Program-made: the position numbers and the translations under genes | Part shown: positions 8,130 through 29,228 of the stretch, one piece after another | Numbering within the stretch: position 1 is the stretch's first letter | Layout of the letters: each line of letters starts with the position of its first letter | Virus record (IMG/VR): IMGVR_UViG_2778261380_000007 | Coordinates: 1 to 29,228 of that record | From: a virus | Taxonomy: Duplodnaviria > Heunggongvirae > Uroviricota > Caudoviricetes | DNA: 29,228 nt | Reading direction: 5' to 3' (one strand) | Notes under the pieces: model-generated | What the model saw: only the letters and a program-made list of their open reading frames with translations | Databases searched by the model: none | What the model was told of the DNA's origin: nothing

Positions 8130-8825
8130 TTAATAAAGCAGTGAACCAAGCAGACCGATACCAGCACCGATACCAGCACCCCACGGAGTTGATGAACCAA
8201 TTAATTTCGCAAGTCCAGCCCCAGCAATAGCACCAGACGCACCTCCGCCAATAGCAGATTGCATTGCTGATGGTCTGTTGGCATTTGCCGCTGCAAGAGC
8301 CGCACTTTGCTGCGAAATCTGACTCATGTTGTTGGCATATGTCTGCCCGGCGTTTGCCTGACCTTGCAGTGCGCCAAGACCAATATTTGCCAGATTCTGG
8401 TAGTTGTTCATCTGACCAGATAGCCATTGCTGACCAAGCGTTGGTGCGATTGTTGCTAACTGATTACCGGTTGCAGTGGAACCCAATCCACCTGTTGCTT
8501 CCGCTGCCGCCAGACTCTGATAGCGAGCCTGACCAGCAAGATCTTTGTACTGCTGAGAGTTGTAATACTGGTTAAGTGCCTGACCTTGCCCTTCCAGAGA
8601 CGATAAGTTCTCGAGGCTGCCGACATACTTATCAGCCAGAGGAGTAAACGGCTTCAGGTTGTTCATGATGGTGTTGAACTGCTGATTTTGCAGGTCTGCG
8701 GCATACTTCTGAGCTTCTGCTGCATACTTTGCGCTTTTATCAGAACTGCCACCTTTCCCGCCTTTTTCATGGCAATAAGGTTCCTCGCCGCGCAGTTTTC
8801 TGCCCAGCTTAAATGCATATAACAT
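8130..8825 (-). CDS. Ejection protein, P22 gp7 homolog
   Basis: 231-aa ORF with Gly/Ala-rich C-terminal hydrophobic region; synteny 14-7-20-16. Confidence 0.8.
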   Translation of the reverse strand: MLYAFKLGRKLRGEEPYCHEKGGKGGSSDKSAKYAAEAQKYAADLQNQQFNTIMNNLKPFTPLADKYVGSLENLSSLEGQGQALNQYYNSQQYKDLAGQARYQSLAAAEATGGLGSTATGNQLATIAPTLGQQWLSGQMNNYQNLANIGLGALQGQANAGQTYANNMSQISQQSAALAAANANRPSAMQSAIGGGASGAIAGAGLAKLIGSSTPWGAGIGAGIGLLGSLLY

Positions 8826-9286: not shown

Positions 9287-10236
9287 TGCTCCGCGATTAT
9301 CTTGATGGTTGTGGCAGTAAACGCCGCCCCATTTGACTGGATGGTTAACGCACTGCCATTTGTGGCAAGAAAGCCGTCTTTATCCACGCTGAAGAACGTA
9401 GCTAACAGGATGTTATCGGTTGTTGTCGCCGAGTTGCGACTGCTTACCAGTGTGTCAGGAACAGAGCTGGAAAAGGTTAGCTGCATTGACCTGTTTGCGG
9501 TTCCGCTGGGCCACGTCCCGACGATCGACAGCTTGAAGAACAAGGTTTTGTTCTCGTTGAACACAACCATCTTGTTGTTAACGGTGTCGAAGAATGGTGC
9601 CAACGTGCCGGATGACGGCGTGAGCGTTTTCAGCAGGCTAACAAGGTTGGTCGGCGCTGTCGGGATGGTTACCGATACTCCTGAGTAAACAACCTCTGAT
9701 TTCTTGCGCGTGGTGGCATACTCAAGCGCAGATATTCTTGTTGAGTGATCACCAACTGTGTTTTGTAGTGTCGGAATACTTCCCTCTGCCGCTGTGAGCC
9801 TGGTATCAAGTGCGTCGATATCGGTTGTATTCTGAGTTATTCGCGCATCATGGTTTGCTAACTCAGATTCATTGGCAGCAATTCGCGTCTCGTGATCAGC
9901 CAGCTCTGTTTCGGCAGCCGTAATCCTTGTTTCATGATCTGCAAGAGTGCTTTCCGCTGCTGCAATTCTATGTTCATGATTGATGAGAGTTGCTTCAGCA
10001 GCTTCAATTCTGGATTCATGGTCTGCAAGGGTGACATCCTGCTCATCATTCTTCACCTGTGCATCATAAGCCCCCTTCCCTGCTTCGTTGGCCTTGTTAG
10101 CCACGTTACCAACATCAGTGCCCTGTGCGATAACGTAAAGCAGATACGACTGCGAGAAGATATTGCGTGGAAGAACTGATGTATCGAGCCGCGTAGCCTG
10201 GATGATTACTGGCTCATTGAGATTCGAATCAGCCAT
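9283..10236 (-). CDS. Tail needle (P22 gp26 family) with extended C-terminal knob domain
   Basis: 317-aa ORF. N-terminus [43 protein letters not shown] matches the gp26 N-terminal domain; central repeats ([11 protein letters not shown] / [11 protein letters not shown] / ANHDARI) indicate a trimeric coiled coil; ~130-aa beta-rich C-terminal extension. Confidence 0.85.
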
Positions 10237-12154: not shown

Positions 12155-12374
12155 CTGCTGCCGCCTTAGGTTTTCGACCAGGCTTTTTACGCTGTTTTTC
12201 TTCTGGCTCTGGCTCTGGCTCTGGCTCTGCAACATCCTTCAAAAGGTCATCAGGATGTGAAAACCAGCCAGCATCCAGATATTCCTGTAGCTCTTCGGCT
12301 TTCACGATTTCAAAGTCGTATCCAACGCCTTTCCATTTCTTCATGTCGCCATGACGAAAGATCATGTGTGTCAT
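12132..12374 (-). CDS. Small acidic hypothetical protein (80 aa) with [10 protein letters not shown] repeat and Lys/Arg-rich tail
   Basis: ATG at 12372-12374 preceded by a GGAG RBS, immediately after the coat terminator; the ORF-track start at 12422 would lie inside the terminator. Coding status uncertain. Confidence 0.45.
12204..12230. repeat. Hexanucleotide tandem repeat (CTGGCT)x4
   Basis: Seen directly at 12204-12227; encodes EPEPEPEP in one - strand frame and SQSQSQSQ in another. Confidence 0.9.
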
Positions 12375-26967: not shown

Positions 26968-28344
26968 TCATACGTCAGCCCCTTGTGCATATCGTCTGCC
27001 ACGTGCAGCGGGTGCATTTGATGCTGTGCAAATCTGTCTGGCTTCATCCTGGTCACATGCAACAAAGTGTCCGTTGCAGAACCGTTGGTAAACCGTACCA
27101 AGCGAGCCAAAACGGTTTTTCGTCACGATGATTTCAGCAAATGGCGCGGCGCTACTGTTCTCGTCATATACCGCTTCCCGATAGAGCATGATGATTGAGT
27201 CTGCGTCCTGTTCAATGCTTCCTGAATCACGCAAATCTGCGTTTGTCGGGCGTTTGTTTGGTCGCTTCTCAACATCGCGCGAAAGCTGACTTAGGGAGAT
27301 AACTGGCGTTTTCAGGTCTTTCGCCATCGCCTTCAGGCTTCCGGAGATGTGAGCAATTGCGAGATCGTTGCGATCTGCTTTCGGCTTCTCAATCAGGCCA
27401 AGATAATCCACCATGATGAGTGACAGGTTTGGATTTTCCTGTTTGTGCCGTTCTGCGATTGAGCGTATTTCTTCGACCGATAACTGCGAGGCATCGACTA
27501 CCCATACATCCAAATCTGCAAGCTGACTCATGCCGTTAGCAACACGCGCCCATCCTTCGTCATCCATCGATGCAGGATTTCGCAGCACGCTAACCGACAT
27601 CCTCCCGGCGTTGGCAATGCTTCGCTCTGCAATCTGCAATGCGCTCATTTCCATCGAGAAAATCAACACTCCGCGCCGGACGTCAGAACCAGGAATAACG
27701 CGGCTTGCAACGCCTTCGGCAATCTTCAGCGCCAGTTCGGTTTTCCCCATACCAGGACGAGCGGCGATTATCACCAGGTCTTCCGCGTTCATCCCTCCGG
27801 TGATGGCGTCAAGTTCTTCGATTCCGGTCTTCAGGGTATCTGACTCTTCTCCGTTCCTCAGACGCCTATCAAGCGTGTCAGTGTAGTCAGTGATGATTTC
27901 CCCTAACCGTACAGGTTTAACCTCGTCACGGGGCTTTCTGATGGCTGAAAGACGCTTTACAAGCTCGTCCATCGCCTGACTCGATGTATCGATGGTTCCG
28001 CTCTGAATTGGTTCACGCATTTCATCCATGATTTCCAGCACCAGACGGCGGTGATAGTTATCCGCGACCATTCCGGCATATCCCTTCAGGTTTGCGGCGC
28101 TCGGGCAGTTTTTGCTGGTCATCAGGATTGACGTGAAATGCTCCTCTCCGCACGCCTCGGCAACCATCAGCGCGTCGATTAGGTTTCTGTTTCTCGCCTG
28201 CTTGCGGATAACCTCGAAGGCTTTCCGGTAGAGAGGAATTGAAAACGCTTCCGGCTCAAGCGTTGCCAGAACGTCACTGGCGGTTGGAGTTAATCCACCA
28301 ATCAGCAGGCCACCGATAACGCTCGCTTCGATATCCTGTCTCAT
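26968..28344 (-). CDS. Replicative DNA helicase (DnaB family; P22 gene 12-like)
   Basis: 458-aa ORF; Walker A-like [13 protein letters not shown] and downstream DnaB-type motifs; same length as P22 gp12; start overlaps the initiator stop. Confidence 0.9.
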
Positions 28345-29228
28345 GCAATCCCCCTGTCTGCAAACTTCCCTTCCCGAACTCCCGTTAACGAGTCTTCCCT
28401 CAGCAGGTAATCAAAATCAGCCGTCCAGCCCGTGTCGTTGTCTCCGAAGTAAAACGGCTTGGCCTGATGCACAAACGCCCTGACATACGCCCTGAAACCG
28501 TCCACGTTTGGCGTTTTCAGTTGCGGGATGATTTTCTTCAGGCGGCGTTTTCGTTTCTCGTTGACCGCAACAGCGTGTGGAAGTCTGTCACCGACTTCGG
28601 TGTTGTAGGCGTTCAGGAAGGATTCGTAGTCGATTCGTTCTGCCTTGCGACGTTCAGGTTTAACCTGCCCATCGCCGCCCCCGTTAGGGGGTAAGGGGGT
28701 ATTATTTATATTCTTGTTAATACCTTCTTGTTCATGATGTGCGGTTGTTTGTGCGGCTTCATGTGCGCTTTCATGTGTGGCATGTACGCTGAAAGCCGCG
28801 CCATTACTGGCTTCATCATGTGCGGCATCATGTGCGGTTGTTTGTGCGGCTTCATGTGCGGGTGAATTGTCCATTTTTTGAGCGTATTCATGGTAATTTG
28901 TGATGGTGATCACACGCCCTTTTTGCTTCTCTCCATCAATGGAAATCATCCCCTCTTTCACAAAAACCTGAAGCATCCGCTCAACCTGATCACGGCTTGC
29001 TGGCTTGCCATGCCTGTCGCATAACTGAAGACCTAAATCAGCTGCTGTCACAACCAGTTGACCGGGTTGCAGATGCCATTCATGACCTTTGAAATTCGCT
29101 TTGTATGGCTTTCTGGCGGCATTCAGGAGAAGGTTTTCCCACAGGGTGCGAAGATAAACATCTTTCGCCCATGACTGTTTCAGAATGCTCCGGTACAACG
29201 GAATGTAACCAGTTTTCTGGTTCTCCAT
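28341..29228 (-). CDS. Replication initiator (lambda O / P22 gene 18 functional analog) containing the presumed origin
   Basis: 295-aa ORF whose ATG sits exactly at the window edge, so the true start cannot be confirmed; N-terminal winged-helix-like region; His/Ala-rich repeated linker ([10 protein letters not shown] twice) encoded by iteron-like DNA repeats; lies directly upstream of the helicase. Confidence 0.75.
28737..28866. repeat. Iteron array: eight TGTGCGG-type heptamers at exact 12-bp spacing in two blocks of four, including a perfect 31-bp direct repeat; candidate replication origin
   Basis: Seen directly: heptamers start at 28738, 28750, 28762, 28774 and at 28819, 28831, 28843, 28855; 31-bp repeat at 28737-28767 and 28830-28860; AT-rich tracts flank both sides. 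Confidence 0.7.

Follow-up and report, generated by a model that had tools for sequence, protein, structure and literature searches.

What does an array of short, evenly spaced repeats do inside the coding sequence of a phage replication gene? The stretch of DNA that we analysed (29,228 bp, in the following called the window) is a P22-like (Lederbergvirus) prophage of E. coli in minus-strand reading, with integrase, tailspike, virion, lysis and nin genes ahead of the replication genes. Eight short repeats lie within its O-type replication initiator gene, and the original prediction had taken them for an origin-like iteron array. Based on our data, positions 28678-28861 are very likely the vegetative replication origin of this prophage, located inside the linker-coding part of the initiator gene. 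The array is almost certainly a further case of the known lambdoid arrangement with the origin in gene O, with an unusual layout, a specificity type of its own and a 12-bp lattice. The parts of the predicted origin region and the genes and domains around it are as follows:

28884..29228, minus strand: N-terminal winged-helix domain of the initiator (aa 1-115), the predicted reader of the iterons
28814..28861, minus strand: putative iteron block A, four 12-bp units CCGCACATGAAG CCGCACAAACAA CCGCACATGATG CCGCACATGATG (minus-strand reading)
28781..28813, minus strand: central spacer of 33 bp, holding CCAGTAATGGCGCGGC (28795-28810) and a degenerate ninth core GCGTACA (28783-28789)
28733..28780, minus strand: putative iteron block B, four 12-bp units CCACACATGAAA GCGCACATGAAG CCGCACAAACAA CCGCACATCATG
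28700..28732, minus strand: AT-rich tract, predicted DNA-unwinding element, 33 bp with 18% GC and a purine-rich coding strand
28678..28699, minus strand: G/C box, on the plus strand CCCCC GTTA GGGGG TAA GGGGG, a 5-bp inverted repeat plus a G run
28341..28677, minus strand: C-terminal domain of the initiator, predicted to recruit the helicase, P22 gp18 / HK97 gp54 type
28341..29228, minus strand: O-type replication initiator gene, ORF of 295 aa, Pfam Phage_rep_O
26968..28344, minus strand: gene for a DnaB-type replicative helicase like that of P22 gene 12, overlapping with the initiator gene at the latter's stop codon

On the plus strand, exact copies of the heptamer TGTGCGG start at 28738, 28750, 28819, 28831, 28843 and 28855, and copies with one mismatch at 28762 (TGTGCGC) and 28774 (TGTGTGG). 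These start positions bear out the predicted eight heptamers at exact 12-bp steps in two blocks of four, which on the minus strand read as eight cores of the CCGCACA type (block A 28814-28861, block B 28733-28780). The 31-bp direct repeat that had also been noticed is exact (28737-28767 equals 28830-28860, the two copies lying 93 bp apart). All eight 12-bp units are direct repeats without dyad symmetry. Blocks A and B are on separate lattices, with a step of 45 bp between the last unit of one block and the first of the next, and the degenerate ninth core in the spacer (plus strand TGTACGC, 28783-28789) is shifted by 9 bp relative to the phase of block B. Outside the array, both strands of the 29-kb window together contain just two further exact copies of TGTGCGG, versus 4.45 expected for the whole window. 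Using the number of in-phase copies of a single 7-mer as a score and allowing one mismatch, the region reaches 8 versus a maximum of 4 among 273 other 211-bp tiles of the window and of 5 among 300 dinucleotide-preserving shuffles of the region itself. The array is real and far above chance, and Tandem Repeats Finder returned no comparable array elsewhere in the whole 29-kb window. Other tandem repeats are found in the virion genes at 9910-10033 (period 42, 3.0 copies, 68% match), 12202-12229 and 8154-8180, the remaining ones being TCTGGC in 4.7 copies and a 12-mer in 2.2 copies. Inverted matches between the array and 28469-28486 (78% complementary) and a 12-bp tandem at 28471-28495 were judged to be chance. 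Scanning of 28300-29228 detected no promoter-like site and a single terminator-like hairpin, which lies inside the repeats and is at chance level.

The gene that carries the array belongs to the O family, since residues 1-112 of the initiator match Pfam PF04492 (Phage_rep_O; E 7e-15), a model that P22 gp18 and HK97-type O match too. It is 97-98% identical to the initiator genes of CUS-3, JEP4, Gally, HF4s and about 50 records of Stx2a-converting phages. As had been proposed, the repeats lie in the linker-coding part, following the N-domain at about aa 123-165 of 295. They are thus placed between the DNA-binding N-domain and the C-domain, as in lambdoid origins and at the same site as the iterons of P22 and HK544. 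The initiator ORF starts at the very last base of the window (29228). The CUS-3 gene (98% identical) is annotated 60 nt longer, and the more distant ENT1 homologue has a Val where the ORF in the window has its Met and starts upstream; therefore, the true start probably lies past the window end and the gene is probably cut, by about 60 nt. In the CUS-3 annotation, in ENT1 and in the SA1298 contig, the initiator homologues begin 20 codons further upstream. For the helicase gene (458 aa), Pfam reports DnaB_C with E 5e-79 and the DnaB N-domain with E 4e-13; its length and position are those of P22 gene 12.

Directly after the repeats in the direction of transcription follows the AT-rich tract, the order known from lambdoid origins. 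It contains two TTCTTGTT motifs 14 bp apart and is kept across clades as AACAAGAA..AACAAGAATATAAA. Of the AT-rich flanks that the original prediction saw around the array, the one on the C-terminal side (28700-28732) has 18% GC and the one on the N-terminal side (28860-28899) has 35% GC. The adjoining G/C box encodes PLPPNGGG and is identical in the O genes of P22 and HK544, where it also stands beside the iterons.

How does this arrangement compare with known replication systems? The lambda origin lies inside gene O and consists of four 18-bp iterons (ITN1-4) and a 38-bp AT-rich tract. In both cases the predicted or known origin is located in the linker region of a Phage_rep_O initiator gene with repeats followed by an AT-rich tract; specificity resides in a module of N-domain and origin, and the C-domain goes with the respective helicase or loader. 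The proposed parallel to the lambda origin applies to the layout inside O and not to the repeats themselves: lambda has four 18-bp dyads, whereas the units of the window are direct repeats, eight in number and 12 bp long with an 8-bp core, arranged in two blocks that are separated by a 45-bp step. Besides, the partner protein is a DnaB-type helicase in the window and the P loader in lambda. Since the units of the window lack the dyad symmetry of the lambda iterons and the P22 repeats, the binding mode is not simply transferable from lambda.

According to the literature, gene 18 of P22 contains four internal repeats of roughly 20 bp, the presumed binding sites of its initiator, and the repeats in gene 18 of both P22 and phage L are comparable to those of lambda. 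With the P22/HK97 type, the window shares the gene order of initiator and 458-aa DnaB-type helicase, the AT-rich tract plus the GGGGGTAAGGGGG box with repeats at the identical position, and a homologous C-domain (53% aa identity to P22, 97% nt identity to HK544). It differs in the N-domain, which cannot be aligned to theirs by BLASTP, and in the sites, as P22 and HK544 are of the dyad type with four sites of roughly 17-20 bp (TTTACCGATTTGGTAAA, TTAGCCGACTTGGCTAA) spaced 23/24/20 bp.

Outside the phages, theta plasmids with iterons also use winged-helix Rep monomers on direct repeats and an adjacent AT-rich unwinding element. Compared by this general description, they resemble the window in combining direct repeats, a winged-helix initiator and an AT-rich element. 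Plasmid iterons are typically 17-22 bp long and located outside the rep gene, often together with DnaA boxes.

By its sequence organisation, the closest described relative of the window array is the array in gene 18 of phage L (ST64T-type), which has been called 'likely the origin' (Zaworski et al., G3 2020, PMC8022706) and is annotated as a putative rep_origin in GenBank MW013502; the phage L origin is thus likewise a predicted one. Both phages have two equal blocks of short direct repeats (4+4 in the window, 3+3 in phage L) that flank a CCAGTAATGRCGCGGC spacer and are followed by an AT-rich tract, in phage L with the central motif CCAGTAATGACGCGGC and the AT-rich continuation AACAATAATATAAATAATA, and in both a DnaB-type helicase is encoded downstream. 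In contrast to the window, phage L uses an 11-bp unit (TGTCCAACGGA) that is out of codon register and has a different core sequence. Both of its blocks are on one 11-bp lattice, 66 bp apart and with a step of 44 bp (4 x 11), whereas the blocks of the window type, with its 12-bp unit, are off-lattice at 69 or 81 bp and have a step of 45 bp, which is not a multiple of 12. The two initiators are 22% identical over their full length (pairwise E 2e-9), a score to which the shared domain layout may contribute most.

To obtain the family-wide picture, we ran a scan with an alignment of the N-domain, which yielded 44 loci in Enterobacterales genomes as well as 80 near-identical viral contigs. The 44 loci, prophages and phages of Enterobacterales, encode N-domains that are 42-89% identical to that of the window, and in all intact loci the array follows straight after the N-domain. 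A single frame accommodates 43 of the loci without gaps: flank, three to four units, a 33-bp spacer, again three to four units and the AT-rich tract. In this frame, the units are 12 bp long in a 3+3 or 4+4 arrangement, the spacer contains CCAGTAATGGCGCGGC and the AT-rich tract begins with AACAAGAA. The distance between the block starts is 69 bp in 3+3 loci and 81 bp in 4+4 loci, which means that the step from the last A unit to the first B unit is always 45 bp, and this step is invariant in all intact loci of the 12-bp type. A helical-phase rule, by which block B would extend the rotational ramp begun by block A (45 bp being equivalent to 24 bp modulo two turns), was dropped because of the 11-bp lattice and 44-bp step of phage L.

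Among the close relatives, 78 of the 80 contigs are 4+4, and in one of the 80 (L132) 93 bp were lost by recombination between the 31-bp repeats. Two genome loci have a single block, one with a frameshifted N-domain (L042) and one without block B and the downstream part (L014). These three single-block variants carry three units each and may be decayed prophages. Within a locus, units A(i) and B(i) often have the same spacer sequence. The equal unit numbers in both blocks could therefore reflect function or, equally well, concerted evolution, which could also inflate the conservation within a locus but leaves the contrast between core and spacer unexplained. The central motif CCAGTAATGGCGCGGC is kept across N-domain clades that read different cores and is also present in phage L. 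As the base preceding CCAGT varies, the CCAGT..GCGG motif too looks like a signal at the DNA level; its reader may be a host factor or a further part of the initiator, or it may act as structural DNA.

To measure the contrast between core and spacer, we read 193 type-I units, taken from 34 loci, in the register xCC|GCA|CAT|nnn. Their position weight matrix holds 1.2-2.0 bits at the eight positions of the core versus 0.08-0.69 bits at the four of the spacer. All 193 units have the same wobble C in their first codon, whereas the first base of this codon is nearly random, so that the encoded residue is P, A, G, S or T. Alanine is encoded only by GCA (143) or GCG (37), nearly always uniformly within a locus, and histidine by CAT in 166 units compared with CAC in one. 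As a baseline, 29 four-fold degenerate N-domain sites with a conserved residue average 0.53 bits in the same loci, and none of them is invariant. The 51 haplotypes of the E. coli-type array give the same contrast, with 16 of 64 core positions but 18 of 32 intra-unit spacer positions being variable (Fisher p = 0.003). In other clades, the lattice is unchanged but its peptides are unrelated (e.g. PDEPCDKPSD and EVTNEVTNQVTN), and the 11-bp unit of phage L causes successive copies to be read in different frames. Judged by these substitution patterns, purifying selection on the cores is exerted at the DNA level and not on the peptide. The His/Ala-rich 10-residue repeat, which occurs twice in the translation of the initiator, is thus a by-product of the DNA motif in a tolerant linker. 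Of the coupled DNA and protein constraints that had been proposed, the frozen wobble positions sustain the DNA side, and the differing peptides of other clades speak against the protein side.

The core sequence itself changes between loci, and it does so together with the N-domain that is predicted to read it:

Type Ia: core CCGCACAT; N-domain 70-89% identical to that of the window
Type Ib: core CCGCGCAT / CCGAGCAT; N-domain 68-78% identical
Type II: core CCGATGAA / CGATACAC; N-domain 46-49% identical
Type III: core AGGTAACA; N-domain 42-44% identical
Type IV (GWCGA): core GTCGAA / GACGAG; N-domain 47% identical (ENT1)

Across at least five specificity types, the core tracks the winged-helix clade of the N-domain, and the core types cross-cut six C-domain clusters and two types of partner gene (DnaB-type helicase or lambda-P loader). 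For example, the P22/HK97-type C-domain is found with types Ia, Ib, II and both dyad types, and type Ia is found with three C-domain clusters and both partner types. The repeat specificity is therefore matched to the N-domain and exchangeable as a module, which is a property of lambdoid origins. This pattern supports the prediction that the initiator's own N-domain reads the iterons. Residues 62 (A or S) and 80 (D or H, within TSRD or TSRH) separate type Ia from Ib perfectly; this could reflect shared ancestry instead of base contacts. An AlphaFold2 model of aa 1-118 (pLDDT 83, pTM 0.76) has a winged helix composed of helices at 24-36, 62-68 (helix 2) and 79-91 (the predicted recognition helix) and of wing strands at 95-100 and 104-109. 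In this model, helix 2 begins with residue 62, and residue 80 occupies the second position of the predicted recognition helix. The top Foldseek matches in the PDB are all winged-helix DNA binders, at a weak level (E >= 0.015) that indicates the fold class only, and a profile sequence search of the PDB with the N-domain returned nothing below E 0.01.

Taken as origin iterons, the array is supported by its anatomy, by selection at the DNA level, by covariation with the N-domain and by its positional equivalence to the P22 and HK97 repeats, and three other explanations have to be weighed against this reading. The repeats might be a matter of the protein only, a flexible or metal-binding His/Ala-rich linker that arose by in-frame duplication and has no function as DNA. 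The 12-bp units indeed stay in frame and encode the 10-residue peptide twice, and their number varies by whole units; nevertheless, a wobble position that is frozen while its residue varies, well above the four-fold degenerate baseline, unrelated peptides on an unchanged lattice and the frame changes in phage L make this explanation extremely unlikely. We also regard it as very unlikely that the units have nothing to do with the initiator and instead bind a host factor or a different phage protein, or act as a recombination hotspot that makes the mosaic junction. The core changes with the N-domain clade and not with the host genus or the C-domain, which is difficult to reconcile with such a reader, even though the conservation of CCAGT..GCGG across the specificity types would leave room for a common one. 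The boundary of the mosaic with HK97-type genes is located only about 20 bp from block B, but it falls in the AT-rich tract and outside the repeats.

More weight has to be given to the idea that the initiator binds the repeats for control, i.e. for autoregulation, handcuffing, titration or exclusion of phages with the same origin, and that the true origin is located elsewhere. From the covariation with the N-domain it follows that the sites are read by the initiator, but not what its binding brings about, and cloned lambda iterons can inhibit the replication of lambda-type phages in trans. Moreover, small circular Salmonella records contain the N-domain and the array without the C-domain or the helicase. 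On the other hand, the array adjoins a conserved tract of 18% GC, occupies the exact position of the P22 and HK97 iterons and has no counterpart in the 29-kb window according to Tandem Repeats Finder. In lambda, the same sites serve both initiation and inhibition. Altogether, we consider a purely regulatory array with a distant origin unlikely.

For the preferred reading, that of a replication origin, the following course of events can be envisaged. In the direction of transcription, four units with the core CCGCACAT, the 33-bp CCAGTAATGGCGCGGC spacer, four further units, the 33-bp AT-rich tract and the G/C box would be encountered. The N-terminal winged-helix domain would bind with one protomer per 12-bp unit and core, all in one orientation. 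Occupation of both blocks would lead to an O-some-like nucleoprotein complex consisting of two short arrays at a fixed offset, and this complex would destabilise or open the adjacent tract of 18% GC. The C-terminal domain of the initiator would then recruit the phage's own DnaB-type helicase, which is encoded immediately downstream. We infer origin activity, melting and helicase recruitment, as well as binding, stoichiometry and binding orientation, by analogy with lambda and P22. In the searchable literature, we found no footprint, replication assay or origin mapping for this origin type, and searches for the motif ATGTGCGG / CCGCACAT and for the origins of CUS-3, HK620, Sf6 and Stx phages gave nothing on it. 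Nor did we find, in a literature whose coverage is incomplete, any account of the CCGCACAT type, of a two-block geometry shared by the family or of the way in which cores and N-domains covary. The abstract of a paper on Stx-phage iterons (PMC7466680) describes replication regions that are highly similar to those of phage lambda.

As a tentative generalisation, which may well turn out otherwise, O-family initiators could have two modes of assembly. Dimers would bind to dyad sites in lambda, P22 and HK97, versus a head-to-tail arrangement on direct units of 11-12 bp with one protomer each, in which two filaments of 3-4 protomers are placed around the central motif at a fixed offset of 45 bp (44 bp in phage L). 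If this is true, the natural swaps would provide a readable code, namely residues 62 and 80 versus core position 5 (A or G) and the TSRD / KSPQ / KSPK / KSAK segment versus core type. With such a code, origins could be re-targeted, among them those of Stx2a phages carrying the module.

The initiator gene is a mosaic. Its C-terminal half (28341-28715) matches the HK97-type O genes of HK544, mEp213 and SPN9CC with 97% nt identity, which stops at about 28715; the N-halves of these genes are not related to that of the window. Conversely, the segment 28705-29228, made up of the N-half and the repeats, shows 75-80% identity to phages of Klebsiella and Yersinia with unrelated C-halves, in which the gene after the initiator encodes a lambda-P-type loader. 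P22 gp18 matches the C-domain alone (53% aa identity), the N-domains not being alignable by BLASTP. The junction with the HK97-type O genes falls in the AT-rich tract and not in the repeats, and recognition of the module explains why the mosaic joint of these initiator genes is found there.

Of 5,426 complete E. coli genomes, 280 contain the module of N-domain and array in full length, and it is also present in CUS-3, Kapi1, other P22-like phages and about 50 records of Stx2a-converting phages. Everywhere it is annotated as 'replication protein' only, without an origin feature, so that its recognition offers an annotatable, predicted origin for these elements. Besides, with its five specificity types on one fixed lattice, the module represents a clean natural data set on DNA reading by winged-helix initiators. 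None of this alters the general view of lambdoid replication, and specialists would anticipate such a finding in an O-type gene.

About 20 small circular PLSDB records of Salmonella Infantis contain the array, e.g. NZ_CP148879.1 (5555 bp) and NZ_CP148834.1 (5872 bp). They comprise N, cI, cro, cII, the O N-domain, a complete array of type Ia or II, the AT-rich tract and the GC box, a layout that resembles lambda-dv. The circles close 10-15 nt beyond the GC box and so contain neither the O C-domain nor the helicase; we did not find this junction in IMG/VR. The circles may be assembly artefacts, and we set them aside as natural cloning experiments.

Some database entries related to the module deserve mention. 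OR850084.1 ('Staphylococcus phage SA 1298 Kay', 2692 bp) is an enterobacterial lambdoid O gene with a type II array and a C-domain 93% identical to that of the window; the record, flagged UNVERIFIED_ORG, evidently was mislabelled or stems from a contaminant. Most of the proteins in the database that match the N-domain (P0001-P0067) are 'partial' and end at 150-204 aa, i.e. inside or shortly past the repeat and linker region, which suggests that short-read assemblies often break at the array or at the mosaic junction. In ORF30 (1537-1591) of the Lactobacillus phage phiAT3, which encodes a distant N-domain homologue with 31% identity, four to five tandem 11-bp units of the TGTCAATCAA type follow directly after this domain, so that short direct-repeat arrays in this gene family reach phages of Firmicutes.
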